From NCBI RefSeq assembly GCF_057098645.1, contig NZ_CM169472.1: 64,000 bases of DNA, one strand, 5' to 3'. How positions within the stretch are numbered: the first letter of the stretch is position 1; every line of letters begins with the position of its first letter. Shown here one piece after another: positions 8,286-52,344 of this stretch. The position numbers were made by a program, and so were the translations under genes. The notes under the pieces were generated by a model. That model had not been told where the DNA came from and ran no database searches. It worked only from the letters and a program-made list of their open reading frames with translations.

Positions 8286-9941
8286 TTACTTCTGTAACCA
8301 CCAGACAGCCTCAAAAGGCCGTAGAGTCATGGCACAGGGTTGTGGTGAGGCTTCTTCGTAGTTATGCATCACAAGCTGCCAGTTGCCGCGCATTTGCCCT
8401 GGCTGCCAGGGTTGGATCTCACGGCTAAGGTTGGCAATGACCAGCAAGGTTTGCCCCTTCCATTCACGGCGATAGCACCACAATACAGGGCTGTTTGGCA
8501 GCAGATCCTGGTAATTGCCCCATGTCAGGATGGCTTCCTGCTTACGCAGTGCGATTAACTTTTGGTAGGTGTAAAACACCGAGGAATCATCGGCCAACGC
8601 GGCTTCTACGTTGATTTGTTGATAGTTATCGCCCAGGCCAATCCACGGTTCGCCAGCCGTAAACCCGGCATTATCGCCGTTGCTCCATTGCATGGGCGTG
8701 CGGCTGTTGTCACGGGATTTACTGGCGAGGATTGCCAATAACTCGTCGGCATCACGCCCATCGTTGCGCAGCTCGGCAAACATATTGAGGCTCTCTACGT
8801 CGCGATAGTCAGTAATGCGCGTGAAATGCGGGTTAGTCATGCCAATCTCTTCGCCCTGGTAGATATACGGCGTTCCCTGCATGCCATGCAGCACCATCGC
8901 CAGCATTTTTGCCGCAGGCACGCGGTATTCACCTTCATCACCAAAGCGAGAAACAATGCGCGGCTGATCGTGGTTACACCAGAACAAGGCATTCCATGCC
9001 ACGTTGTGCATTCCTTGTTGCCAGTGGCGGAACAATGTTTTCAACGCCACAAAGTCAGGTTTAGCCAGCGTCCATTTTTCACCACCGGGATAATCGACCT
9101 TCAGGTGATGAAAATTAAATGTCATCGATAATTCACTGCCTGTCAGTGCCGCGTATCGCTGGCAATGCTCAAGGCTGGTGGAGGACATTTCACCTACGGT
9201 CATTAACCCGCGTGGCGTAAACACATCGCGGTTCATCTCGTGCAAAAACTCGTGTGCTCGTGGCCCGTCGGTGTAGAAGCGACGCCCGTCGCCGTCCAGG
9301 TCTTCAGGGAAACGCGGGTCTTTGGAGATCAGATTCACCACATCCAGGCGCAACCCGTCGACCCCACGATCGGCCCAGAACTCACAGACTTTTTTCAGCT
9401 CTGCGCGTACCGCTGGATTCTCCCAGTTGAGATCCGCCTGTTCTGGTGCAAAGAGATGCAAATAGTACTGTTCGCTTTCCGCATGCCAGCGCCACGCACT
9501 ACCGCCAAATTTTGAACGCCAGTTGTTCGGTGGCGTTTCTGGTTCGCCATCGCGCCAGATATAAAACTGGCGGTAAGGGCTTTCTTTGTTCAGCGCCTCG
9601 CGAAACCAGGCATGTTGGGTAGAGGTATGGTTAAACACCATATCGAGAATGATACGAATCCCGCGCGATTTTGCCTGCGTCACCAGTTCGTCAAAATCGT
9701 CCAGCGTGCCGTAGGTGGGATCAATCGCCGTATAGTTCGCTACGTCGTAACCGTTATCGACCTGGGGAGAGACATAAAAGGGGGTTAGCCAGATGGCATC
9801 AACGCCCAGTTTATGCAGATAGTCCAGGCGTTGGATAACGCCACGTAAATCGCCGGTGCCGCTACCCGTGGTGTCCTGAAAACTCTTTGGATAAATCTGG
9901 TAGATAACGCCGTTTTGCCACCAGTGGGGAAGATTAGTCAT
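8286..9941 (-). CDS. treC: trehalose-6-phosphate hydrolase
   Basis: GH13 alpha-glucosidase sequence starting MTNLPHWWQNGVIYQIYPKSF; the listed ORF extends upstream of the true start. Confidence 0.9.
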   Translation of the reverse strand: MTNLPHWWQNGVIYQIYPKSFQDTTGSGTGDLRGVIQRLDYLHKLGVDAIWLTPFYVSPQVDNGYDVANYTAIDPTYGTLDDFDELVTQAKSRGIRIILDMVFNHTSTQHAWFREALNKESPYRQFYIWRDGEPETPPNNWRSKFGGSAWRWHAESEQYYLHLFAPEQADLNWENPAVRAELKKVCEFWADRGVDGLRLDVVNLISKDPRFPEDLDGDGRRFYTDGPRAHEFLHEMNRDVFTPRGLMTVGEMSSTSLEHCQRYAALTGSELSMTFNFHHLKVDYPGGEKWTLAKPDFVALKTLFRHWQQGMHNVAWNALFWCNHDQPRIVSRFGDEGEYRVPAAKMLAMVLHGMQGTPYIYQGEEIGMTNPHFTRITDYRDVESLNMFAELRNDGRDADELLAILASKSRDNSRTPMQWSNGDNAGFTAGEPWIGLGDNYQQINVEAALADDSSVFYTYQKLIALRKQEAILTWGNYQDLLPNSPVLWCYRREWKGQTLLVIANLSREIQPWQPGQMRGNWQLVMHNYEEASPQPCAMTLRPFEAVWWLQK

Positions 9942-37922: not shown

Positions 37923-38007
37923 GCCGAAGTGGCGAAATCGGTAGACGCAGTTGATTCAAAATCAACCGTAGAAATACGTGCCGGTTCGAGTCCGGCCTTC
38001 GGCACCA
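37923..38007 (+). tRNA. leuX: tRNA-Leu (anticodon CAA)
   Basis: 85-nt sequence GCCGAAGTGGCGAAATCGGTAGACGCAGTTGATTCAAAATCAACCGTAGAAATACGTGCCGGTTCGAGTCCGGCCTTCGGCACCA with long variable arm. Confidence 0.95.
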
Positions 38008-38171
38008 TTATTACTTCCAAGTCCATCCGAGTAAGTCCGATTATCCATTAAAAATCAATACTTTCAGCGATTTCTACGATCTTGGATCGTCCGAGGTTGT
38101 CCGTTGAAATCCGGATGTCATTGGGGGCATAATTGGGGGCATCTTAACTTCGATTAGAAATGTGCCCCCAA

Positions 38172-39446
38172 ATGAAGCTCAATGCTAGACAAGTCGAGAC
38201 AGCAAAGCCAAAAGACAAAAGCTACAAAATGGCCGATGGCGGCGGTTTGTATCTCGAGGTTTCGGCCAAGGGGTCTAAATACTGGCGCATGAAATACCGA
38301 CGCCCCTCTGACAAAAAAGAGGATCGCCTCGCTTTTGGTGTTTGGCCGACCGTGACGCTTGCTGAAGCTAGAACGAGGAGGGATGAAGCGAAAAAGTTGC
38401 TGGCGCAAGGTATAGATCCAAAAGCAGTACAGAAAGAGGCTCAAGCAGAGAATGCTGGTGCTTATAATTTTGAAACTATTGCTCGTGAATGGCACGCCAG
38501 CAACAAACGTTGGAGTGAGGATCATCGGGCGCGTGTTCTTCGCTATCTAGAGCTGTATATCTTTCCTTATATTGGCTTGTCTGATATCCGACAGCTTAAA
38601 ACTAGCCATCTTTTAGCACCGATAAAAAAAGTTGATGCCAGTGGTAAGCATGATGTGGCGCAGCGTCTTCAGCAACGTGTTACTGCTATTATGCGCTATG
38701 CCGTACAGAACGATTATATAGATTCAAATCCTGCAAGTGATATGGCTGGTGCGTTATCGACAGCTAAAACGCGGCACTATCCAGCTCTACCATCACATCG
38801 TTTTCCTGAGTTCTTAGCACGTCTTGCTGCATATCGTGGTCGTATGATGACGAAAATTGCGGTTGAACTTTCTTTATTAACATTTGTTCGTTCCAGTGAG
38901 CTACGTTTCGCTCGCTGGGATGAATTCGACTTCGATAAATCTCTATGGCGTATACCTGCAAAACGCGAGGAAATTAAAGGCGTACGTTACTCATATAGAG
39001 GAATGAAGATGAAGGAAGAGCATCTCGTTCCACTTAGTAGGCAAGCGATAGGGTTGTTGGAGCAGTTAAAGCAGATTAGTGGTGATAAGACGCTGCTTTT
39101 CCCTGGGGATCATGACGCAACTAAGGTTATGAGTGAGAACACTGTTAATAATGCATTGCGTGCGATGGGCTATGATACGAAAACAGAAGTTTGCGGACAT
39201 GGTTTTAGGACAATGGCACGTGGTGCGTTAGGAGAGTCAGGATTATGGAGTGATGATGCTATTGAACGCCAATTGAGCCATTCGGAACGTAATAATGTGC
39301 GAGCTGCGTATATTCATACGTCTGAGCATTTAGATGAGCGCAGACTAATGGTCCAATGGTGGGCAGATTATCTTTATTCCAACAGAGAGAAGCATATCTC
39401 TGCTTTTGAATTTGCAAATAAACTTAATAAAAATAGCCTTGATTAA
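38172..39446 (+). CDS. intB: P4-type tyrosine integrase
   Basis: N-terminus MKLNARQVETAKPKDKSYKMADGGGLYLEV... typical of P4-family integrases, directly downstream of tRNA-Leu. Confidence 0.9.
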   Translation: MKLNARQVETAKPKDKSYKMADGGGLYLEVSAKGSKYWRMKYRRPSDKKEDRLAFGVWPTVTLAEARTRRDEAKKLLAQGIDPKAVQKEAQAENAGAYNFETIAREWHASNKRWSEDHRARVLRYLELYIFPYIGLSDIRQLKTSHLLAPIKKVDASGKHDVAQRLQQRVTAIMRYAVQNDYIDSNPASDMAGALSTAKTRHYPALPSHRFPEFLARLAAYRGRMMTKIAVELSLLTFVRSSELRFARWDEFDFDKSLWRIPAKREEIKGVRYSYRGMKMKEEHLVPLSRQAIGLLEQLKQISGDKTLLFPGDHDATKVMSENTVNNALRAMGYDTKTEVCGHGFRTMARGALGESGLWSDDAIERQLSHSERNNVRAAYIHTSEHLDERRLMVQWWADYLYSNREKHISAFEFANKLNKNSLD

Positions 39447-39613
39447 GTCTCCGCTTAGTTTGAACTAGCCTTCATCAACAGCAATGCTTGTGTCTTTTTA
39501 ACCTTCACTTAACAACTTCTTAGGCAATTATTCCATTGCTTTTAAAAACTAAGTATTCCTTAGTAATTTCGAGTGTAAAAAGTGCAAACCTACCTCCAAA
39601 AAGAGGATTTTCG

Positions 39614-39817
39614 ATGCTTCCAATTAGGTTAAAAAAAGCCCGATTGAATGCTGGGTTAACTCAAGAACAGTTGGGAATACTTGTTGGCATTGATGAATGC
39701 TCTGCCAGTGCTCGCATGAATCAATATGAGAAAGGTAAACATATGCCCGATTTTTCACTTACTAAAAAAATCGCTGATTTATTAAATGTCCCTGTCTCAT
39801 ATTTTTACACACCCTAA
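39614..39817 (+). CDS. XRE-family HTH protein, candidate restriction-modification controller (C protein)
   Basis: 67-aa ORF LKKARLNAGLTQEQLGILVGIDECSASARMNQYEKG..., SD aagagga upstream; precedes a putative R gene. Confidence 0.55.
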   Translation: MLPIRLKKARLNAGLTQEQLGILVGIDECSASARMNQYEKGKHMPDFSLTKKIADLLNVPVSYFYTP

Positions 39818-39911
39818 GATGACTTGGCAGAAATTATTTTGTTGATTAATAAACTAGACAAAAAACAGCGGTTAATTTTATTAAAAAATTTATCAGATGG
39901 ATTTATAAGTC

Positions 39912-40730
39912 ATGAATAAGCAAGAAGTTATACTTAAAGTGCAGGAGTGTGCTGCGTGGTGGATTTTGGAGAGACAAAGTAAACTAACAAAGTTAATGTC
40001 AGAAACAATGTCCATAAATCCGTTTATGACCCCTTTTATTTTTGATTATCATTCCCTTAATGATTTTGATGAACTAGTTGAAGCAATAATTGCTAAGCAT
40101 TTAATGACTGGGCATGATACTGGCTTTGGAAAATTGATTGATGAAAAAATACTTCCTAGAGTGTTTGGTGCATATAAATTAGATAAAAGTTATAGAGCTG
40201 CCAACGAGCCTTTTATACACCCTTGCTTTGATGAAATAGATCATGTAATACAAAGGGATGATGGTAGAATTGAGCTTTTATCTCTTAAGGCAGGGAAATG
40301 GACTATTCAATTGACGATGGCTGTCCAACTAAATAAAGCATTTCACGAAATCATAAATAATTATCCTGGAGTGGCTGACAATATAGTGGTTGGGGTTTTT
40401 TATGGAAATAGCCATGGATTAACTGATAAGTATAGAATCTTACGAGGTATCAATACTGGTGCAAACCACAATGTGATTGATATTCGTGACAAAGTGCATG
40501 TATATGCTGGTAAAGAATTTTGGTCATGGCTTAACAATGGTGAGGCTGAAACCCAGCATTGGGTACTTGAAGGTATAGAACGTGCTGTAAAAGAAGCAGA
40601 TATAAAAGAAAAAAATAAAGATCTTATTGAAAAATTCAAAGAACATGTTGCAAAGAAGTACAATGAGCAAGTTCTAAATGCTGATGGCACAGCTCAATGG
40701 CACAAATTACTTGAAATGATTAATGAATAA
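39912..40730 (+). CDS. uncharacterised protein, candidate type II restriction endonuclease (by context)
   Basis: 272-aa AT-rich ORF convergent with a C5-MTase and preceded by a C-protein-like HTH; possible PD-(D/E)xK-like segment DEIDHVIQRDDGRIELLSLK. Confidence 0.4.
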   Translation: MNKQEVILKVQECAAWWILERQSKLTKLMSETMSINPFMTPFIFDYHSLNDFDELVEAIIAKHLMTGHDTGFGKLIDEKILPRVFGAYKLDKSYRAANEPFIHPCFDEIDHVIQRDDGRIELLSLKAGKWTIQLTMAVQLNKAFHEIINNYPGVADNIVVGVFYGNSHGLTDKYRILRGINTGANHNVIDIRDKVHVYAGKEFWSWLNNGEAETQHWVLEGIERAVKEADIKEKNKDLIEKFKEHVAKKYNEQVLNADGTAQWHKLLEMINE

Positions 40731-40767
40731 AAAACTGGCCTAAGGGCCAGTTTTTTTATGACTAATT

Positions 40768-42021
40768 CTAAACTTCTTCTTCAAGGTCGTAGTAAGAAAC
40801 ATCTCCACTATATGCTTGACCATTTTTAAAGAAAGATCTGGTTCTAATATGCGGTCTAATATGGGTTTCTATATAATCTGGAGTTACTAAATCAGCAACC
40901 TTATTTTCTTGTATACGATGAAGAAGTTCCATAGCAGCTTCCCCTGCAACTTTACCTAACCGGACAGGAACTGCGTTACCTATCTGTCTGAATTTTTCTG
41001 TAGTTGTACCTTCAAATTTCCAGTAATCAGGAAACTCTTGTATCGCGGCAGCTTCACCAACAGAAATAGCTCTAAGTTCAGTTGGGTGGCACATACTTGT
41101 TCCCGCATGATTTGGCATTGTTACTACTGTGGGTGAAGGAAACTGGAAAGATAGTTTCCTCCAGTAAGCACTTCTTCCTCCTTTAAGATACCAGCTTTTT
41201 CCCATAGATTCTTTTTGCATTTCTTCTGGCATGCTTCTCCAGTTTCCGCCAGGTGGAACCATTGAAAGATATTTCAGTTTTCTTGGCGAAAAATTCATGA
41301 CTTCTGGATATTTATCAACAAAACCGCTCTCTGGGCCAATTACATCCCCCAGCGTTTTGAATGGCGGAAGATTATCTTCTACTCTATTGCTGAATAAAGG
41401 GGAGGCGAAATTGGCTATCATTCCGAAGCGATTACCAATTAAAATAACACGCTCCCTAATTTGTGGGGCTCCATAGTTGGCAGCATTAACTACAAAGCAA
41501 TCCACATGATAACCTAGTTTATTGAATTCGTTAGCTACCCTTTTTATTAGAGAGCCTTTTTCGAAAGCAGATGCTGCGATTGTGCCTGATAGCTCCTTCT
41601 TTTTAGAAGCTGGAACTATAGACATTGATAATAAACCGCGTACGTTTTCCATTACGAAAACTTTTGGGTTTAATTCTTTAATCATTCGAACGTATTCGAA
41701 AATAAGCTGCCCTCTGGCATCTTCTAGCCCTAACCTATTTCCAAAAACACTAAATGCTTGGCACGGTGGACCGCCAGCAACTAAATCTATTTCTTCTTTA
41801 TCATTCACTCCGGCTAGTGCTAATAATTCAGAGCCAGTGCAGTCAACAATACTACCTTCGAATACAGCAAGATTTGGCTTATTAGTTTTAATTGTTTTTA
41901 GAGCTGCCTTATCTTGTTCAACGCAAGCTACGAGCTCAAAGCCAGCCTCTTCGAGACCTAAGTCTAACCCCATTGCGCCACTAAATAGCGAAATAAACTT
42001 TTTACTAGACAAAATAATCAC
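40768..42021 (-). CDS. DNA (cytosine-5)-methyltransferase
   Basis: 417-aa ORF with motif I FSGAMG, motif IV GGPPCQAFS, motif VI ENV. Confidence 0.85.
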   Translation of the reverse strand: MIILSSKKFISLFSGAMGLDLGLEEAGFELVACVEQDKAALKTIKTNKPNLAVFEGSIVDCTGSELLALAGVNDKEEIDLVAGGPPCQAFSVFGNRLGLEDARGQLIFEYVRMIKELNPKVFVMENVRGLLSMSIVPASKKKELSGTIAASAFEKGSLIKRVANEFNKLGYHVDCFVVNAANYGAPQIRERVILIGNRFGMIANFASPLFSNRVEDNLPPFKTLGDVIGPESGFVDKYPEVMNFSPRKLKYLSMVPPGGNWRSMPEEMQKESMGKSWYLKGGRSAYWRKLSFQFPSPTVVTMPNHAGTSMCHPTELRAISVGEAAAIQEFPDYWKFEGTTTEKFRQIGNAVPVRLGKVAGEAAMELLHRIQENKVADLVTPDYIETHIRPHIRTRSFFKNGQAYSGDVSYYDLEEEV

Positions 42022-42337
42022 CTACATACTTAGCAGCCAAATACTAGGATATTGTAAAGGATTAACACTAATCCTCAACTCAAGTTTCAGGGATCTTAGC
42101 AGAATCTGCTTTGCAAGGATTCTATGAATGTAAATTAATAGATACTGGCGCGCAGTGCTTTCCCCGCCTCGCCCGCCCGCTTTGCAGGGCGGTTTTAATG
42201 CAGTTGCACAGTCACGCTCAGGCTGCGCCGGGAATGGCGCGGTCTGCAGAGAATGAGGCAGGAAAACGCATGCAAAGCCATGCACCTTATCGATGCATGG
42301 CTTTTTTCAGTAAAAACGGGAGGATTTTCGGGGAATT

Positions 42338-42910
42338 TTACACAGACTGACGTGATGCCAGTTGCGCACTTTTACGCGAAAAAATCATGTTCTGCGCAGG
42401 GGTGAATTTTTCACGGCTGTCATCCACCGAAGCCGCGTCAGGCCTGAATCCGATGGTCGTTAAAATGTCGCTATCCTGTGCGGAATAATTAATTTTTTCA
42501 CCCTTCGCAAGCCAGGACAGGAGGGCTTCACGCAGGGCATCTGTGGCACGCTGTATGGCACAGTTTCGGGCAATGGCCGTCAGCTCACTGTAGCCCATCA
42601 GCTCCGGTGCCAGTGCCGCCGCCAGTGCTGTGCCGTGCTGCTGCATAAAATCATTCAGCCGATCGCGGATGCTGATGTGCTGAACGGCTTCATGCGAACG
42701 AATATAACGACCGGCGGCCTGATTCACCTGCCATTTTCTGACTTCGATAATATTGCGTAATTCGTCCAGGCGACTGACGTTTCTGCCTTCTCCTGACAGA
42801 AGCCGCAGATATTCCTGTTCGGCCGCAGCCAGCTCATTTTTGCGTTGCAGCCATGCTGCTTTGTTATTCTGACAGGTGTCAAAGGCCTGCTGTAAGGCTG
42901 TGCTTTCCAT
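42338..42910 (-). CDS. psu: P4-like polarity suppression protein Psu
   Basis: 190-aa ORF at the end of the sid-delta-psu operon, length and position as in P4. Confidence 0.7.
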   Translation of the reverse strand: MESTALQQAFDTCQNNKAAWLQRKNELAAAEQEYLRLLSGEGRNVSRLDELRNIIEVRKWQVNQAAGRYIRSHEAVQHISIRDRLNDFMQQHGTALAAALAPELMGYSELTAIARNCAIQRATDALREALLSWLAKGEKINYSAQDSDILTTIGFRPDAASVDDSREKFTPAQNMIFSRKSAQLASRQSV

Positions 42911-42983
42911 CGTTATCTCTTTCTCATCATGCTGAAGAATAAAAATACGGTGTGCGGCGACGGCCGGGGTTAACCGGCAGCCC

Positions 42984-43484
42984 TCATTCCAGACGCAGCG
43001 AATATGATTGTGTTTTTAACCGTACTGGCGGCAGTTCCTGTTTTTCATGCAGGCTTTCTGCCAGTTCGTCCGGCGTGACCGGGCGGACAATGAAGCGGTT
43101 GATGGTCTGAAGCGTTTTAAACACCAGACCACAGCCCGGATCCGTGCACACATAAAAACGCTCGGTGACTTCCTGAGACAGACGCCGCGATGTTCTTGAC
43201 AGCGCAAGGCCTTTACATCTCCGACAACAATATCCGGTAACAAGCATTCTTTTCGGGCGCTTCATGCTACCGGAGGCTGACGTCAGTGAATCGCGGTATC
43301 TCTGTTTGCCTGAAATGTATTCCATTCCTGAATCTTTACAGTCAGAGAAAAAGCTTTCACTCGCTTCAAATGTCGCAGAGCAATAAATATTCCGGCACTG
43401 TGCAATCATTATCTTGGTGCCATCGTCCATGAAATGTGCGCGACGGGTGTGAGCAACATGTCCACACGACGGGCAGTAAATCAT
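42984..43484 (-). CDS. delta: P4-like Delta late-gene activator (tandem Ogr-type zinc finger)
   Basis: 166-aa ORF with two CxxC...CxxxxC zinc-finger units (CPSCGH...CRNIYC and CCRRC...CTDPGC). Confidence 0.8.
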   Translation of the reverse strand: MIYCPSCGHVAHTRRAHFMDDGTKIMIAQCRNIYCSATFEASESFFSDCKDSGMEYISGKQRYRDSLTSASGSMKRPKRMLVTGYCCRRCKGLALSRTSRRLSQEVTERFYVCTDPGCGLVFKTLQTINRFIVRPVTPDELAESLHEKQELPPVRLKTQSYSLRLE

Positions 43485-44215
43485 GACAGCAGTCCTCTGG
43501 CCTTAAGCACTGCTCCCTGCTGGTCTATTTTGTCCTGCCACACCTTGCGCTGTGCCGGTGTGCCTGCCACCTCATAATCCATGTGCGGGAGTGTTGCCGC
43601 TGACAGTCCGGTCAGCCGGAGAACCGGCTCGCCGGTGAGGCTGATTTGCATCTGTTTTATTTTCTGTTCCAGCGATGATTTCACCTGCTGCATGACAGCT
43701 TTATCGGGTGCGACGTAGCCCTGATGCCCGGTGGTGTTGGCGAGCGGATTTTCCTGTACCAGAATGCTCAGATGCATTGCCCGGACAAGCGCCTCACAGG
43801 TTTCATTCAGGGCGTGTTCCAGCTCATGCTCTGCATACAGACTCAGAAGGTGATGATGTGCCTTCCGGTAGGCGGTGGCCGTGCTGTCACACGCCCCTTT
43901 CAGGCGTTCACGTTCGAAATTCAGCACCACGGCCAGATTGTCATATTCCTGTACCAGCTCCCGGCGTGCCACGCGCTCAATGTGGCGCTGTTTCAGCTCG
44001 TCGCTCAGGACACCACCGGCTGCACGAAAGGCCGTGCGCCAGTCGTCAGCGTCGTTTCCGTCGGCCTGCGCCAGCGCATTTTTTTCCTGCTCTGCCCGTT
44101 CAATGGCCGTGACGGTCTCATCCATCAGTCGGGCGTTCTCAAGGTGGGCGGCTCTGGCCTTTTCCAGTTGTGCCAGTGCGGGTTGCAGATATTCAGGGAT
44201 GGTGTTGTCAGACAT
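43481..44215 (-). CDS. sid: P4-like Sid capsid size determination protein
   Basis: About 244-aa coiled-coil ORF upstream of delta; start assumed at MSDNTIPEYL. Confidence 0.7.
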   Translation of the reverse strand: MSDNTIPEYLQPALAQLEKARAAHLENARLMDETVTAIERAEQEKNALAQADGNDADDWRTAFRAAGGVLSDELKQRHIERVARRELVQEYDNLAVVLNFERERLKGACDSTATAYRKAHHHLLSLYAEHELEHALNETCEALVRAMHLSILVQENPLANTTGHQGYVAPDKAVMQQVKSSLEQKIKQMQISLTGEPVLRLTGLSAATLPHMDYEVAGTPAQRKVWQDKIDQQGAVLKARGLLS

Positions 44216-44287
44216 TTTCCGGCTCCTCGTCACTTCAGGTTAAGAAAATTGTGACGTACACCGGACAACAACACGACGCATTGCAGA

Positions 44288-44305
44288 TGTGCCAGCCCTG
44301 ACACA
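44288..44305 (-). promoter_or_regulatory. TGT-N12-ACA dyad, candidate Ogr/Delta activator site of the sid late promoter
   Basis: tgtgccagccctgacaca about 70-90 bp upstream of the sid start, matching the P2/P4 late promoter activator-site pattern. Confidence 0.45.
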
Positions 44306-44384
44306 GGAGACTCATCCTCAGACCGGCAAGCCAGGAAAAGGTCGCAGGAAAAACCGGCTTACTGTTTGTTTTTTTATATTTTAC

Positions 44385-44478
44385 TGTTCACCTCTGTTCA
44401 CCATAAGAAAAAAGATAAGTAATACAGTAAGTTAAATGGTGAACAATCGCAGTAATGACTGTTCACCGTCTGTTCACC
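44385..44478. repeat. P4 ori-like cluster of TGTTCACC iterons (alpha-binding type I repeats)
   Basis: Five TGTTCACC/GGTGAACA octamers within 95 bp. Confidence 0.6.
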
Positions 44479-44804
44479 CGTTGATGGACTTTTTGTGCTG
44501 TTTACTACTGTTTATTTTTATTAATTCACTGAAATAAATAAGAAAAAACAATTTGTATTTCACTATAATTTTTTCCAGCTCCTTCCAGAGCGTTTTAAAG
44601 CTATCTGGCGCTGATATACAAAAAATGCACAGCCATTGTAAGGCTGCCGGAACAAATCCCCCCTGTTGCGTCTGCCAAAAATATTCACAAAATAAAGCGC
44701 TACCCGAAGCCGGACGGACTTATCCGGTGCTGTATGGACATTAACGAGGTAGCCCGATGCAAGCTGTTTTTTCTTCCCCGTCTCCCGCCCCTGTGACGCC
44801 ACTG

Positions 44805-45023
44805 ATGCCGCTGCCGGACATCACGCAGGAGCGTTTTTTACGTCTGCCGGAAGTGATGCACCTGTGCGGCCTGTCACGCTCGACCATCTATGAACTCATC
44901 CGTAAGGGGGAATTTCCGCCGCAGGTGAGTCTTGGCGGTAAAAATGTGGCCTGGCTGCACTCTGAAGTCACCGCATGGATGGCCGGACGCATTGCCGGAC
45001 GCAAACGGGGGTACGACGCATGA
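44805..45023 (+). CDS. AlpA/Vis-family phage transcriptional regulator
   Basis: [51 protein letters not shown] matches AlpA-type HTH. Confidence 0.75.
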
Positions 45024-45412
45024 TAGTGCCCGCTCTGCAAAAACTCCCTTTTTCTGGCTTGCCTTTTTCCGGCATTTGCGGATATAGTTTTTCCGCTGCC
45101 GCAAAATCGGCAGCCGGGCGTGAGAACCCGTGTAGCTCGAAGGCGACATATGACGCGCCATGCGTCTTTTTTTGTGTCGCAATCAACGCCACAGAGCGCC
45201 AGATTATGGTGTGGCGTGTGGTTTGCCGTGCAGGTATGATCCTGTTCGCAATCGCATGTTATGCCACTGAGTCAATGGTAGCTCAGGCGGGGCAGCCTCC
45301 GGGCTGGCCGGTATTCTTCGAGGCCGGTATTCTCACCCCCGTCTGGGCTATCGCCATCGAGCGTGAGAACTCCGGCGATAGCAGTTATTTGCTACTCGAA
45401 GGAGGCTGCCTT

Positions 45413-45610
45413 ATGGCTACAACCCTTACCCCCTCACACCCTGAATTTGTCTTTGTGTTTGCGGCTGTCCGTCGCGCAGACCGTCATCCCCGTATCTGCA
45501 TGCTTCGCACCGTCGCCGGTGATGAACGCAGCGCCCGCCGTTCCCTTGTCCGTGACTATGTGCTCTCCCTTGCTGCCCGTCTGCCGGTGGTGGAGGTGTC
45601 CCGTGCGTAA
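45413..45610 (+). CDS. small hypothetical protein of the P4-like early region
   Basis: 65-codon ORF with strong SD ggagg 8 nt upstream; the longer listed ORF 44975..45610 is rejected. Confidence 0.35.
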
Positions 45611-45915
45611 TAAAAGCCCCTCAGACCGTCTCAGCGCGTCATGACGCCCGTGAACACCTCAGCATTGAGGCTTACCATAAGCTCAACCGCGCCAGCGCCG
45701 TATCCCGGTTTGTTGCAAAATGGCATCTGAATCGATCGCAGTTTGGCATTCGAATCGATCATGATTTGGCATCCATCTCCGATCACAGTTTGGCATCACA
45801 ATCGATCACGATTTGGCATGCTTCCGATCATTGATTGGCATCCTGCCAGTCACTCCGGGAATTAACTCTTTTCACCACAGTCTCCATTGCCGTGTTTAAA
45901 CCAGTGGAGACGTCA

Positions 45916-47481
45916 ATGTCCAGAAAGAGAAAATCCAGGAGCACTATGGAAACCTGTTTTAAGATCCTTCAGCTCAAGTTCGACAAGAAGCTGACTAACC
46001 GTTGTATCGGACTGACGTTACACATCAGCGCCTCAACCGTTTTTGAGGTTCTTGCCCGCTTCAAAGCCTCTTCTCTGTCATGGCCATTACCTGCTGATAT
46101 ATCCCATGACACGCTGGAGAAACTCATTTTTCCGCCCAAAGACACCTTTGCATCAGAGCTTGTAATGCCTGACATGTTGTACTTCGATACGGAAATGAGA
46201 AAACCAGGTGTGACGCGGCAACTGTTGTGGATGGAATACAAGGCACAGGCGGGTAACAAAGCGATGGGATACTCGCACTTCTGCCGTTGCTACCGGGAGT
46301 GGAAAAAAACGCGACGTCTCTCCATGCGCCAGGAGCATCGTGCCGGCGAAAAGCTTTTTATCGACTTCTGTGGTCCTACGGTTCCTGTTATTAATCCGGA
46401 CACCGGTGAGATACGCCGCGTGGCAATCTTCGTGGCCGTAATGGGGGCGTCCAACTATACCTACGTTGAAGCGTGCGAAGGTCAGGACATGATGTCATGG
46501 TTAAATGCCCACAGCCGTTGCCTGACCTTCCTGGGCGGCGTACCGAAGCTGCTCATCCCCGATAACCTCAGAAGCGCAGTGAAAAAGGCCGATCGATATG
46601 AGCCTGTCATCAACGACAGTTATCAGGCACTGGCTGAGCACTATGGCACGGTTATCATCCCGGCCCGACCACGCAAACCTAAAGATAAACCAAAAGCAGA
46701 AAACGGCGTCCTCATCGTTGAACGATGGCTTCTTGCCCGCATCCGTAATGAAACCTTCCACACGCTCAGGGCGCTGAATGCGCGCCTTAGGGAGTTACTG
46801 ACAGACATGAATAACCGGCCAATGAAGGGGTACGGCAATCAAACCCGTGCAGAACGCTTCCGCATACTGGATGCGCCAGCACTCTCTCCGCTGCCTCTGG
46901 CACCTTATGAATACACGGAATACAAAGCTGTGAAGGTTGGCCCTGACTACCACGTTGAATATGCCCGTCACTGGTACTCCGTTCCACACGAACTGGTCGG
47001 TCAGCGTCTGTCACTGAAGGCGGGGCAGTCGGTGGTACAGCTCTGGCACAAGGGGCAGTGTGTGGCGCAACATCCGCGCAGCACACATGAATATAAACAC
47101 ACAACCAATCCGCTTCACATGCCAGAGCGCCACCGGCAGCACGGGACATGGACACCGGAACGCCTGATCGAGCAGGGAAAACGTACGGGCCCGTCCACAG
47201 GCCGGGTGGTTGAATCCATGCTGAAGGCAAAACCCCATCCGGAACTGGCTTATCGTGCAGTTCTGGGGCTGCTGGCACTTCAGAAAAAATACGGCCCGGA
47301 ACGGCTGGAAAAGGCCTGTTACGTTGCCCTGCACTATAACGCCCCTGACAGACGCTTTATCGACAATCTGCTGCGTCACCATCGGGAGAACCTGGAGCTT
47401 CCATTATCCCGCCAGGGCGAACAACATCCGGCATATGCTTCAGAGCATGAAAACCTGCGTGGTCCGGGCTACTACCACTGA
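45916..47481 (+). CDS. istA: IS21-family transposase IstA
   Basis: About 520-aa ORF with N-terminal HTH and DDE-type core, followed by istB. Confidence 0.75.
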   Translation: MSRKRKSRSTMETCFKILQLKFDKKLTNRCIGLTLHISASTVFEVLARFKASSLSWPLPADISHDTLEKLIFPPKDTFASELVMPDMLYFDTEMRKPGVTRQLLWMEYKAQAGNKAMGYSHFCRCYREWKKTRRLSMRQEHRAGEKLFIDFCGPTVPVINPDTGEIRRVAIFVAVMGASNYTYVEACEGQDMMSWLNAHSRCLTFLGGVPKLLIPDNLRSAVKKADRYEPVINDSYQALAEHYGTVIIPARPRKPKDKPKAENGVLIVERWLLARIRNETFHTLRALNARLRELLTDMNNRPMKGYGNQTRAERFRILDAPALSPLPLAPYEYTEYKAVKVGPDYHVEYARHWYSVPHELVGQRLSLKAGQSVVQLWHKGQCVAQHPRSTHEYKHTTNPLHMPERHRQHGTWTPERLIEQGKRTGPSTGRVVESMLKAKPHPELAYRAVLGLLALQKKYGPERLEKACYVALHYNAPDRRFIDNLLRHHRENLELPLSRQGEQHPAYASEHENLRGPGYYH

Positions 47482-47497
47482 CAGAAGGAACAACAGT

Positions 47498-48253
47498 ATG
47501 AGTGATAACCTGTTAAACAAACTGACCCAACTGAAACTCCCGGCGATGGCCGGGAGCCTGATACGGCAGCGGGAAACGCCTCAGACCTACGACGAACTGT
47601 CGTTCGAGGAAAGGCTGACGCTGCTGGTTGATGACGAGCTTCTGAGCAGGGAAAACAGCCGTGTGGCACGGTTGAGAAAAAATGCCGGCCTGAAATACCA
47701 GGCAACACCGGAAGGGCTGCGCTATCCGGCCTCAAGAGGTCTGCGGGCTGAACAGATGAGAGAACTGCTGAACGGCCACTACATAACCCACAGGAAAAAC
47801 CTGCTGATAACCGGTCCGACAGGATGTGGCAAGAGCTGGATAGCCAATGCGCTGGGCGAACAGGCATGTCGACAGAAACACAGCGTCCGGTACTGTAGAA
47901 CCGGGCGATTACTGGAACAACTGGCTCAGGGACGTGTTGATGGCAGCTGGCTGAAATATCTGAAACAGTTGCAAAAAATACAGGTTCTAATCCTGGACGA
48001 TCTGGGGCTGGAACAGTTAAGTAACGCCCAGTGTAATGACCTTCTGGAGCTCATAGAGGATCGTTACGGACAAAGCAGCACGATAGTGGTAAGCCAGTTC
48101 CCGGTAGATAAATGGCATGGTCTGATGGAGAACCCAACAACAGCAGATGCCATCCTGGACAGACTGGTACATAACTCACACCGAGTGGTCCTTCAGGGAG
48201 AGTCACTGAGGAAAAATCCCCCGGTAGTGGAAAGCAGCGAAAAAACGCGTTAA
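47498..48253 (+). CDS. istB: IS21-family ATP-binding helper IstB
   Basis: Walker A GPTGCGKS, Walker B ILDDLG, C-terminal ILDRLVHNSHRVVLQGESLR as in IstB. Confidence 0.8.
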   Translation: MSDNLLNKLTQLKLPAMAGSLIRQRETPQTYDELSFEERLTLLVDDELLSRENSRVARLRKNAGLKYQATPEGLRYPASRGLRAEQMRELLNGHYITHRKNLLITGPTGCGKSWIANALGEQACRQKHSVRYCRTGRLLEQLAQGRVDGSWLKYLKQLQKIQVLILDDLGLEQLSNAQCNDLLELIEDRYGQSSTIVVSQFPVDKWHGLMENPTTADAILDRLVHNSHRVVLQGESLRKNPPVVESSEKTR

Positions 48254-48525
48254 AAAGCGGTAGAAAAAGTTAAGTTCCCGGTTGATCGAATGGATGCGAA
48301 TCGCTGATCGGACTTCGATGCCAATCCGTGATCGAATAGAGCGGAATACGCAGTTTGTTGGGGGTGATTTGATTCACCGTGAACTCTCCGGCCTGCATCA
48401 GCTCTACATTCCGCATATTTTCAGTTACCTGAATGAAGATATTGATTTTGTGCTGAATGAACTGAAAGCCAAAGGCCTGTGCCGCGATTTTCTCGCCCAG
48501 CAGAAAGACCGGGGAGACAGGACGC

Positions 48526-48981
48526 ATGTTTGATTTTCCCCAGCCCGGTGAGATTTACCGTTCTGCCGGTTTTCCCGATGTGGCCGTGGTCGGCATTCTG
48601 GAAGACGGTATTCCGTGGGAAATGCCGTACCGCTGCCCGGACATTGTCTGGAACCCGTACCGCCGTAAATTCAGTATCCTTGTGCGTATCCTCGCTGACG
48701 GGCGCACCACAGACATCCCGCTGGGGCGTTTTCTGCGGGAATTTACCTGTGACCGTCCTGACCTGTTTAAACGCAGCCCCGTAAACCGGCATGCGGTACT
48801 GAAAGAAATGGCCGGAGACCCGGAATTACAGAAATGGCGGGAGAAATATCTGGATATTTACCCGCAGGACCCTGTTCCGGTCAGCCGGGCGGCACCGGTG
48901 GCGCGGGAATGGCGGGAAATTCCCCGCACGGAGCCTGACCCGGAAATCACCCCGGATAACAGTTACCGCAATTATCTGTAA
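48526..48981 (+). CDS. P4-like early-region protein (orf151 equivalent)
   Basis: 151-aa ORF upstream of alpha in the same orientation. Confidence 0.5.
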   Translation: MFDFPQPGEIYRSAGFPDVAVVGILEDGIPWEMPYRCPDIVWNPYRRKFSILVRILADGRTTDIPLGRFLREFTCDRPDLFKRSPVNRHAVLKEMAGDPELQKWREKYLDIYPQDPVPVSRAAPVAREWREIPRTEPDPEITPDNSYRNYL

Positions 48982-49116
48982 TTAAAAAACGACACCCGAA
49001 AAATTAAATGTGCGTATTCGCGCAGGGATACGCACGTCTTCAGGAGACGCAGATATGCCTTATCAGTTAATGCAACCGGCACGGAATGCAGTCATCTGTC
49101 ACAGGGAGGAAAACAA

Positions 49117-49437
49117 ATGAAAACACCCTTACCGCCCGTCTTACGCGCTGCCCTTTACCGTCGCGCTGTCGCCTGTGCCTGGCTGACCGTGTGCGAACGT
49201 CAGCACCGCTACCCGCATCTCACCCTTGAGTCACTGGAAGCGGCCATCGCCGCTGAGCTGGAAGGCTTTTATCTGCGCCAGCACGGTGAGGAAAAAGGGC
49301 GTCAGATAGCCTGTGCCCTGCTGGAAGATTTAATGGAATCCGGCCCCCTGAAGGCCGCGCCGTCGCTGTCCTTTCTCGGGCTGGTTGTGATGGATGAACT
49401 CTGTGCCCGTCACATAAAAGCGCCGGTACTGCACTGA
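49117..49437 (+). CDS. P4-like early-region protein (orf106 equivalent)
   Basis: 106-aa ORF immediately upstream of alpha. Confidence 0.5.
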
Positions 49438-49451
49438 AGGAGAACAACACC

Positions 49452-51785
49452 ATGAAAATGAACGTAACCGCCACCGTCAGCCATGCGCTCGGCCACTGGC
49501 CGCGTATTCTCCCGGCGCTGGGGATTCAGGTGCTGAAAAACCGTCATCAGCCCTGTCCGGTCTGTGGCGGGAGTGACCGCTTCCGTTTTGATGACAGGGA
49601 GGGGCGCGGCACCTGGTACTGCAATCAGTGTGGTGCCGGTGACGGCCTGAAACTGGTTGAAAAGGTGTTTGGTGTCTCCCCGTCCGACGCGGCCGCAAAG
49701 GTGGCTGCCGTGACCGGCAGCCTGCCCCCGGCTGACCCGGCAGTGACGGCTGCCGCCGGTGCTGAAACAGACGCTGCCCGGAAGAACGCCGCCGCACTGG
49801 CACAAACCCTGATGGCGAAAACCCGTCCCGGAACCGGTAACGCCTACCTGACCCGCAAGGGCTTTCCCGGCCGGGAATGCCGGATGCTGACCGGCACACA
49901 CAGATCCGGTGGCGTGAGCTGGCGTGCCGGTGACCTTGTGGTGCCACTGTATGACGACAGCGGCGAACTGGTTAACCTTCAGTTAATCAGTGCTGACGGC
50001 CGTAAGCGCACCCTGAAAGGCGGACAGGTCAGGGGCACCTGTCACACCCTTGAAGGACAGAATCAGGCCGGAAAACGTCTGTGGATAGCGGAGGGATACG
50101 CGACCGCACTTACCGTACATCACCTGACCGGTGAAACGGTGATGGTGGCGCTTTCTTCCGTGAACCTCCTTTCTCTGGCCAGCCTTGCCCGGCAGAAGCA
50201 TCCGGCCTGTCAGATTGTCCTTGCCGCAGACCGTGACCTCAGCGGTGACGGCCAGAAAAAAGCCGCCGCAGCCGCAGATGCGTGTGAGGGCGTTGTTGCC
50301 CTGCCGCCGGTCTTCGGTGACTGGAATGATGCCTTCACGCAGTACGGCGGGGAGGCCACCCGTAAGGCCATTTACGATGCCATCCGGCCACCGGCTGAAA
50401 GCCCGTTCGACACCATGAGCGAAGCAGAGTTTTCCGCCATGAGTACCAGCGAAAAGGCCATGCGTATCTATGAGCATTACGGCGAGGCGCTCGCGGTTGA
50501 TGCCAACGGCCAGCTTCTGTCCCGTTATGAAAATGGTGTCTGGAAGGTGCTGCCGCCACAGGACTTTGCCCGGGATGTGGCCGGGCTGTTTCAGCGTCTG
50601 CGCGCGCCGTTCTCCTCCGGGAAGGTGGCCTCCGTGGTGGACACCCTGAAGCTGATTATTCCGCAGCAGGAAGCCCCCTCCCGCCGCCTGATTGGCTTTC
50701 GTAACGGCGTGCTCGACACGCAGAACGGCACGTTCCACCCGCACAGTCCGTCACACTGGATGCGCACCCTGTGCGATGTGGATTTCACCCCGCCGGTGGA
50801 CGGTGAAACGCTGGAGACCCACGCCCCCGCGTTCTGGCGCTGGCTTGACCGTGCCGCCGGTGGCCGTGCGGAAAAACGCGACGTGATTCTGGCCGCACTG
50901 TTTATGGTGCTGGCAAACCGCTATGACTGGCAGCTCTTTCTGGAGGTGACCGGTCCCGGCGGCAGCGGCAAAAGTATCATGGCCGAAATAGCCACCCTGC
51001 TGGCCGGTGAGGATAACGCCACGTCGGCCACTATTGAGACGCTGGAATCCCCGCGTGAACGTGCCGCGTTAACTGGCTTCTCACTGATACGCCTGCCGGA
51101 CCAGGAAAAATGGAGCGGCGACGGTGCCGGACTCAAGGCCATCACCGGCGGCGATGCGGTGTCCGTGGACCCGAAATACCGGGATGCGTACTCCACGCAT
51201 ATCCCGGCGGTGATTCTGGCCGTGAACAATAACCCGATGCGCTTCACCGACCGCAGCGGCGGCGTGTCACGCCGGCGGGTGATTATTCACTTCCCGGAAC
51301 AGATAGCCCCGCAGGAGCGCGACCCGCAACTTAAGGACAAAATCACCCGCGAGCTGGCGGTCATCGTGCGTCACCTGATGCAGAAGTTCAGCGACCCGAT
51401 GCTCGCCCGGTCACTGCTTCAGTCCCAGCAGAACTCAGACGAGGCACTGAACATCAAACGGGATGCCGACCCGACGTTTGATTTTATCGGCTATCTGGAA
51501 ACCCTGCCGCAGACCAGCGGCATGTATATGGGGAACGCCAGTATCATCCCGCGTAATTACCGTAAATACCTCTATCACGCCTATCTGGCCTACATGGAGG
51601 CAAACGGCTACCGGAATGTACTCAGTCTGAAAATGTTCGGGCTGGGGCTGCCGGTGATGCTGAAGGAATACGGGCTGAATTACGAGAAGCGCCATACCAA
51701 ACAGGGGATACAGACCAACCTGACGCTGAAAGAGGAAAGCTACGGCGACTGGCTGCCAAAATGTGACGACCCTGCAACAACCTGA
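49452..51785 (+). CDS. alpha: P4-like alpha primase-helicase
   Basis: 777-aa ORF with N-terminal zinc-binding primase motif (CPVCGG...CNQCG), Walker A GPGGSGKS, P4 position. Confidence 0.85.
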   Translation: MKMNVTATVSHALGHWPRILPALGIQVLKNRHQPCPVCGGSDRFRFDDREGRGTWYCNQCGAGDGLKLVEKVFGVSPSDAAAKVAAVTGSLPPADPAVTAAAGAETDAARKNAAALAQTLMAKTRPGTGNAYLTRKGFPGRECRMLTGTHRSGGVSWRAGDLVVPLYDDSGELVNLQLISADGRKRTLKGGQVRGTCHTLEGQNQAGKRLWIAEGYATALTVHHLTGETVMVALSSVNLLSLASLARQKHPACQIVLAADRDLSGDGQKKAAAAADACEGVVALPPVFGDWNDAFTQYGGEATRKAIYDAIRPPAESPFDTMSEAEFSAMSTSEKAMRIYEHYGEALAVDANGQLLSRYENGVWKVLPPQDFARDVAGLFQRLRAPFSSGKVASVVDTLKLIIPQQEAPSRRLIGFRNGVLDTQNGTFHPHSPSHWMRTLCDVDFTPPVDGETLETHAPAFWRWLDRAAGGRAEKRDVILAALFMVLANRYDWQLFLEVTGPGGSGKSIMAEIATLLAGEDNATSATIETLESPRERAALTGFSLIRLPDQEKWSGDGAGLKAITGGDAVSVDPKYRDAYSTHIPAVILAVNNNPMRFTDRSGGVSRRRVIIHFPEQIAPQERDPQLKDKITRELAVIVRHLMQKFSDPMLARSLLQSQQNSDEALNIKRDADPTFDFIGYLETLPQTSGMYMGNASIIPRNYRKYLYHAYLAYMEANGYRNVLSLKMFGLGLPVMLKEYGLNYEKRHTKQGIQTNLTLKEESYGDWLPKCDDPATT

Positions 51786-51792
51786 CCCACCT

Positions 51793-51818
51793 GACCGGCA
51801 TCTGCCGGTCTTTTTTTA
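51793..51818 (+). terminator. intrinsic terminator downstream of alpha
   Basis: ccggcatctgccgg hairpin followed by a T7 run. Confidence 0.6.
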
Positions 51819-51825
51819 TCCCGAC

Positions 51826-52115
51826 ATCCCCCGAAGGTGAACAATCCACTGTTCACCCTTCACCGTATATTCACCCGTTATCACACTGAAATTAAAAGAG
51901 AAAAACGAAAGGTGAACAGTGTGAACAATCAAATCAAAAAAAACTTTTTTCTCCCTGCGTGATTTTCAGTGCAGGGGACTAATCGCCGGTATGAGTCACA
52001 CCGGCAGAATACCGGAGGTGAAGAATCGAATGTTCACCCTTCACCCATTATTCACCACCTATCATACTGAAATAAAAGGAGAAAAAAGAAAGGTGAACAG
52101 TGTGAACAGTTCTTT
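51826..52115. repeat. crr-like cis replication region: two direct repeats of about 105 bp, each carrying TGTTCACC/GGTGAACA iterons
   Basis: Copies at about 51831-51935 and 52005-52110, near-identical. Confidence 0.65.
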
Positions 52116-52320
52116 CGAAAAAAAATTTTTTATGTGGATAAAAGATGCACTGGTTTGGATCCGAGCTACGGATCCAAACTTACTGATTAAAAATGATTTA
52201 ACTTTCCGATTTATTGATGGGCTGAAAATAGATTGGTCAGAAAAACAGTGGGGGCACAAAAGGGGGCATATTTCATTGTTGTGTTTTATTATTTGTTTTT
52301 TATCATTAACTTATTTTGAT

Positions 52321-52344
52321 GTTTGAGTCCGGCCTTCGCACCAC
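52321..52344 (+). repeat. degenerate direct repeat of the tRNA-Leu 3' end (attR-like island boundary)
   Basis: gtttgagtccggccttcgcaccac versus tRNA 3' end gttcgagtccggccttcggcacca. Confidence 0.55.

Follow-up and report, generated by a model that had tools for sequence, protein, structure and literature searches.

Upstream of sid, the DNA analyzed here (a stretch of 64,000 nucleotides, called the window) carries two TGT-N12-ACA dyads, which raises the question of whether they are activator binding sites of a P4-type late promoter, whether a helper phage could still act through them, and how far such activation would extend. A preliminary description of this DNA had placed the dyads at 44250-44267 and 44288-44305. 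A pattern scan of the window returned exactly these coordinates, with TGTGACGTACACCGGACA at the first and TGTGCCAGCCCTGACACA at the second position on the plus strand. The TGT-N12-ACA pattern is its own reverse complement and thus gives the same reading on the minus strand, which encodes sid. Counted from the sid ATG (44215, minus strand), the proximal dyad starts 52 nt and the distal dyad 90 nt upstream, and their centers lie 43.5 and 81.5 nt before the ATG, respectively.

The frequency of the motif was evaluated at two scales. No enrichment of TGT-N12-ACA was present in the window, where 17 matches were found as compared with 14.94 ± 3.89 in shuffled sequences, and 17 or more matches were reached in 32 of 100 shuffles. 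With 17 matches against 14.9 expected, the window-wide count was dropped as evidence. The 541-bp intergenic region between vis and sid contains three exact dyads where about 0.13 would be expected, corresponding to a Poisson P of about 3e-4 by our own arithmetic for a region picked post hoc. The density in the vis-sid region, identity to P4, and conservation of the distal dyad together place the dyads above chance.

The comparison with the sid promoter of phage P4 gave 100% identity over both dyads, and the alignment remained free of differences over the 190 bp or so that precede the sid ATG. A 701-nt query containing the promoter was 91.6% identical to P4. P4 Psid (X51522/NC_001609, 9493-9548, with sid at 9583) has the same dyads, -10-like hexamer, Shine-Dalgarno sequence, and upstream stretch, and is followed by the same operon of sid, delta, and psu. 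Judged by this identity, the region represents the late promoter Psid in a P4-like satellite prophage, and both dyads are elements of P4 Psid. BLAST against the complete P4 genome yielded three collinear blocks with 83-98% identity. Whereas the promoter is without difference from P4, the element as a whole has an EcoO109I cargo in place of gop, beta, and cII, and an IS21-family element in epsilon. The features are listed in Table 1. As a side observation, a contig labeled "uncultured Clostridiales bacterium" (URND01000141.1) has a P4 sid-delta region that shares 99% identity with the window; this contig probably represents Enterobacteriaceae DNA that was mis-binned into a metagenome-assembled genome.

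Table 1. Features of the P4-like prophage and of its sid promoter region, in window coordinates
Feature	Position	Strand	Basis or remark
tRNA-Leu(CAA)	37923-38007		carries first att repeat
Whole P4-like prophage, att repeat to att repeat	37984-52338	.	tRNA, repeats, P4 collinearity
att 18-nt direct repeats	37984-38001 and 52321-52338
int	38160-39446
Variable cargo	about 39447-42154
Small helix-turn-helix ORF upstream of R, probable controller (C) protein	39614-39817	+	ORF list; position
R.EcoO109I endonuclease	39912-40730	+	full-length match to PDB 1WTD EcoO109IR, E=1.9e-187; PADLOC REase_II, E=5.5e-198
C5 cytosine DNA methyltransferase	40768-42021	-	Pfam DNA_methylase, E=7e-65; PADLOC MTase_II, E=3.5e-105
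Sigma-70-like promoter TTGAGG-16-TACAAT	42051-42078	-	just upstream of methylase gene; consensus scan, pattern match only
cos cohesive-end sequence GGCGAGGCGGGGAAAGCAC	42155-42173	-	read from sequence
Hairpin after psu	42274-42304	-	13-bp stem, 5-nt loop, then UUUGCAUGCGUUUU; RNA fold; possible weak intrinsic terminator
psu, polarity suppression/capsid decoration, 190 aa	42338-42910	-	Pfam Psu, full-length, E=1.3e-88; P4-collinear
delta, tandem Ogr-like zinc-finger activator, 166 aa	42984-43484	-	98% identical to P4 Delta
sid, capsid size-determination scaffold, 244 aa	43481-44215	-	99% identical to P4 Sid
Shine-Dalgarno GAGGAG	44223-44228	-	7 nt before sid ATG
Predicted Psid transcription start	44238-44242	-	inferred: 6-10 nt downstream of CACAAT
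-10-like hexamer CACAAT	44248-44253	-	read from sequence; CAGAAT in single-Delta lineages
Proximal dyad, TGTCCGGTGTACGTCACA on sid strand	44250-44267	-	overlaps -10 hexamer, about -17/-18; candidate second Delta site
Conserved block CAATGCGTCGTGTTGTTGT	44265-44283	-	between distal dyad and -10 hexamer, roughly -24 to -42
Distal dyad, TGTGTCAGGGCTGGCACA on sid strand	44288-44305	-	inferred Ogr/Delta activator site of Psid, about -55
ori repeats	about 44385-44620
Third exact dyad, P_LL activator site by homology	44637-44654	+	centered 111.5 nt upstream of vis/ORF88 ATG
vis/ORF88	44757-45023
cI region, then start of epsilon	about 45190-45715
IS21-family element (istA, istB)	45716-48352	+	Pfam rve, Mu-transpos_C_2, IstB_IS21
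Remainder of epsilon, orf151, orf106, alpha	48353-51785

The core elements of the promoter were then read against this frame. CACAAT is the only -10-like element on the sid strand, and the CA-AAT positions were invariant in an alignment of four lineages. A consensus scan of the minus strand between 44216 and 44330 found no sigma-70-like site, and the hexamer at the -35 position with 17-bp spacing, TCGTGT, matches TTGACA at 2 of 6 bases. The lack of a consensus sigma-70 promoter fits an activator-dependent promoter. Between the distal dyad and the -10 hexamer, the block CAATGCGTCGTGTTGTTGT was nearly invariant across lineages and genera and more conserved than the spacer of the dyad, and it bears no resemblance to a -35 hexamer. 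At the place homologous to the Shine-Dalgarno sequence, the P4 record X02534 likewise annotates a potential Shine-Dalgarno sequence. The "-10 consensus" of that record lies inside the distal dyad, bears no resemblance to a -10 hexamer, and was set aside as an early guess made from sequence.

The spacing between activator site and start could be compared with that in P2. The center of the distal dyad (44296.5) lies 48.5 nt from the last base of CACAAT and would lie 55-58 nt from the predicted transcription start. In the P2 reference record, the activator sites are annotated 55-58 nt from the annotated late start sites, and with this spacing Psid would start 6-10 nt past CACAAT. The P4 sid start site is said to have been mapped by Dale et al. 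in 1986. The distance of the distal dyad from sid, which had been called plausible, fits this geometry: the dyad would be located about 55 nt from the start implied by CACAAT, as the P2 sites are from theirs.

In the Ogr-dependent late promoters PP/PO, PV, and PF of P2, the activator site occupies the place relative to the start that is predicted for the distal dyad, and these promoters answer to the same activator family (PMC3152322). Ogr binds inverted repeats whose center lies at about -55 and works via the alpha subunit of RNA polymerase (PMC3152322); a mutational analysis of a P4 late promoter is among the work cited in that source. The P2 late promoters differ in that their dyads are imperfect and that their annotation includes no second site over the -10. 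An exact TGT-N12-ACA is absent from all three activator sites annotated in P2 (NC_001895: 3057-3087, 10239-10266, 17555-17583), and the five exact matches in the P2 genome are all located outside annotated activator sites. Because no annotated P2 site matches, the exact pattern is poorly suited to detecting such sites outside P4.

Conservation of the distal dyad was analyzed in sid loci gathered without regard to the promoter. A DNA search supplied three divergent E. coli elements, and an alignment of Sid proteins supplied 12 loci from other genomes, with Cedecea, Citrobacter, Tatumella, Enterobacter, Edwardsiella, Pantoea, and Chimaeribacter included. Sid identity in these 12 loci went down to 27-30%, and to 30% among the loci with an exact distal dyad. 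An exact distal dyad centered 81.5 nt from the sid ATG (82.5 nt in Edwardsiella) was present in 14 of 16 sequences: P4, the window, and 12 of 14 loci analyzed for comparison. These 12 loci were the three divergent E. coli elements, one near-identical contig, and eight loci from Cedecea, Citrobacter, Tatumella, Enterobacter, and Edwardsiella. The Pantoea locus had no exact dyad at the distal position, and in the Chimaeribacter locus the sid start was not placed. With the conserved block downstream of the distal dyad as anchor, a scan of IMG/VR added 120 loci, about 100 of which were sid promoters, and all of these had the same pattern of fixed half-sites with a variable spacer. Altogether, 11 distinct distal sequences were obtained. 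TGT and ACA were kept in every one of them and the extended half-site was close to TGTG(C/T)CA, while the 12-base spacer varied (GTCAGGGCTGGC, GCCATTTTTGCC, GCCAGCACTCTG, GCCATCCCTGCG, and others). This pattern of substitution at the distal dyad is the clean phylogenetic footprint left by a dyad to which protein binds. When the window was scored with a matrix of the extended half-sites, the distal dyad was the top-scoring 18-mer in the whole 64 kb, a test that is partly circular in that the dyad of the window is among the 11 training sequences.

Satellites whose Delta has a single domain (among them E. coli CP151161 and CM170101 as well as loci of Citrobacter, Cedecea, Tatumella, and Edwardsiella) share with the window the distance of the distal dyad, the conserved block, and the CA-AAT hexamer. 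They differ from it in a proximal TGT-N12-AGA, in a Delta of 65-86 aa versus 166 aa, and in the distal spacers. Two IMG/VR loci from one sample, L063 (6235-8899) and L064 (4188-6852), carry an approximately 2.6-kb tandem duplication of a segment comprising orf106, cI, vis, ori, and the sid promoter. Each has two sid promoters, whose distal spacers differ (GAACTG versus GCACTG) and whose half-sites are the same.

Considered as a whole, the region is best explained, with a probability of roughly 0.88, as P4 Psid with the distal dyad as activator site and the proximal dyad as most likely a damping Delta site. Identity to P4, geometry, conservation pattern, and intact coding regions come from the sequence comparison itself, and protein binding, start site, activation, and repression are carried over from published P4 and P2 work. 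The distal dyad would be bound by the zinc-finger proteins Ogr, supplied by a P2-type helper, and Delta, supplied by the satellite itself. From its position about 55 bp upstream of the start, the bound activator would contact the alpha subunit of RNA polymerase and recruit the enzyme to a promoter with only a weak -10 (CACAAT) and no recognizable -35, and sid, delta, and psu would be switched on. The proximal dyad would most likely serve as a second Delta site of lower affinity that damps the operon as Delta accumulates.

The third exact dyad of the vis-sid intergenic region belongs, by homology, to P_LL. P4 has a dyad at the same position, with three differences in the spacer and both half-sites intact, and no exact dyad was seen at this position in the single-Delta lineages. 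P_LL is described as a P4 late promoter that is additionally activated by P2 Cox (PMC3936717). It resembles Psid in possessing an exact TGT-N12-ACA dyad within the same intergenic region; it differs from Psid in its opposite direction, in flanks that match the distal consensus poorly, and in its activation by Cox.

The same intergenic region also accommodates the replication origin, and the dyads might be regarded as part of that origin rather than of a promoter. The rep_origin annotated in X51522 (9086-9809) does cover the positions homologous to the dyads. However, the annotated type 1 and type 2 repeats of ori are all located further upstream (P4 9176-9413, equivalent to about 44385-44620 of the window), and in every lineage the spacing of the dyads from both the sid ATG and the -10 hexamer is constant, which is how promoter elements behave. 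With the annotated repeats lying upstream of the dyads, the assignment to the origin was rejected as highly improbable.

Within the promoter, the proximal dyad differs from the distal dyad in its relation to the -10 hexamer. Its center (44258.5) would lie 17-20 nt upstream of the predicted start, and its ACA is identical with the central three bases of CACAAT. Because of this overlap, a protein bound there would compete with RNA polymerase, and the proximal dyad is not a second activator site. Of the likeness to Ogr/Delta sites proposed for both dyads in the preliminary description, the part concerning the distal dyad stood, supported by identity to P4 and by the P2-like distance of 55-58 nt, whereas the proximal dyad had to be withdrawn as an activator site. 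A role in repression, which we take over from earlier P4 work, is suggested by a study of Julien and Calendar from 1995. In each of the six late promoters of P2 and P4, Delta reportedly gave a footprint at about -55, with a second DNase footprint near -18 of Psid, and mutation is said to have shown that the latter site is repressive.

The sequence TGTCCGGTGTACGTCACA is identical in P4, and the proximal dyad was invariant in 41 of 41 P4-type loci. As a tentative alternative, only the distal dyad would bind protein and the proximal dyad would be coincidental, with no regulatory role of its own. It could be a by-product of two neighboring elements, with TGT contributed by the end of the conserved block, GTGTTGTTGT, which is kept in all lineages, and ACA contributed by CACAAT. 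Consistent with this, the promoter is kept in the single-Delta lineages even though all of them have AGA (CAGAAT) at the proximal place; TGT-N12-AGA was present in 59 of 59 loci in which Delta has one domain (65-86 aa). In its flanks, the proximal dyad is unlike the distal consensus and scored as background in the half-site matrix (P=0.2), with four chance dyads of the window scoring higher, and its invariance among P4-type elements is in line with how little this clade has diverged overall (979/1038 E. coli genomes with a match at least 95% identical). The flank test, however, cannot reject a function, because the P_LL dyad fails it too and nevertheless belongs to a described P4 late promoter. 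The reported footprint near -18 and the reported mutational evidence for repression likewise speak for a Delta site.

The exact proximal dyad was found only together with the 166-aa tandem Delta, that is, in 31 of 31 IMG/VR loci in which Delta was found and in P4, contig URND01000141.1, and the window, an association that comes from one clade and counts as one evolutionary event. It is possible, although we consider it doubtful, that the exact dyad at -18 is a derived character, gained in the P4 clade along with the duplication of Delta in tandem. If so, a single G-to-C change from CAGAAT to CACAAT would have created a perfect operator. The two-domain Delta could then bind at both sites and thereby turn off the operon that encodes it, and satellites with a single-domain Delta would be without this feedback.

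We further determined whether the genes governed by the promoter are complete. A 250-aa ORF with a GTG start at sid represents an upstream extension, the P4 Sid protein having 244 aa. In Delta, the Pfam domain Ogr_Delta was matched in two stretches and the cysteines are kept. P2 Ogr trans-activates the expression of P4 delta, psu, and sid (PMC7552001). The ORF list of the window contained no P2-type helper genes. Since Sid, Delta, and Psu are intact, activation of the operon by a helper is plausible from the sequence. The preliminary description had called helper-dependent activation intact, which is upheld for this operon, with its unaltered promoter and its intact sid, delta, and psu genes, and is not upheld for the element overall, in which an IS21-family element splits epsilon.

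It had further been proposed that late activation drives read-through into the cargo of the hotspot. On the evidence of the protein matches, the cargo between int and cos (39536-42021) is the EcoO109I type II restriction-modification system; the small ORF upstream of the endonuclease gene presumably corresponds to C.EcoO109I. We take the 19-mer GGCGAGGCGGGGAAAGCAC to be the P2/P4 cohesive end, and homology to P4 stops at 42174, equivalent to P4 position 11624. The first report of EcoO109I, by Kita et al. 1999 as cited in PMC9122126, already concerned a P4-like prophage. According to Rousset et al. (PMC9122126), hotspot systems, EcoO109I among them, occur in either orientation and are active from native promoters.

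For Psid transcription to run past psu and cos and raise methylase expression upon late activation, several features of the sequence would be favorable. The methylase gene is located on the psu strand 317 nt downstream of psu, the U tract of the post-psu hairpin is poor and missed the T-run criterion of the terminator scan, and Psu suppresses Rho-dependent termination (PMC11718236). On the other hand, the 13-bp hairpin immediately 3' of psu is identical in P4 and is followed by cos, and a separate sigma-70-like promoter (a pattern match) precedes the methylase gene. C and R are encoded on the other strand and are convergent with the methylase gene, so that read-through would be sense for M only and antisense to C and R. 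Moreover, cargo of this hotspot works from native promoters in either orientation, and a restriction-modification system would have to be expressed in the lysogen with or without a helper. Read-through as a driver of the cargo is unlikely, and this part of the preliminary description finds no support in the form proposed; some partial read-through into the methylase gene is possible given the weak U tract. Dependence of EcoO109I cargo expression on the late promoter should not be assumed.

The insertion in epsilon concerns the opposite side of the promoter. The IS21-family element is flanked by an 8-bp target duplication, GTTTGTTG, at 45708-45715 and 48353-48360, and collinearity with P4 breaks at P4 8061-8068, within epsilon. 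It separates vis, cI, and P_LL/P_LE from orf151, orf106, and alpha, and the prophage measures about 14.35 kb versus 11.6 kb for P4. A search of 5,426 complete E. coli genomes with the IS/epsilon junction found no place covering at least 80% of the query in any of them. The disruption of epsilon and the length of 14.35 kb may cast doubt on replication and packaging of the satellite.

The finding itself is already known biology, which the preliminary description had recognized correctly. The comparative analysis adds to it modestly: the family universally has the distal site, whereas an exact proximal site is confined to elements with a tandem Delta. What changes is the annotation of this DNA rather than the biology, in that the window contains a prophage whose P4 late promoter is unaltered and whose sid, delta, and psu genes are intact. 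With promoter and genes in this state, a P2-type helper should still be able to switch on capsid-size redirection.
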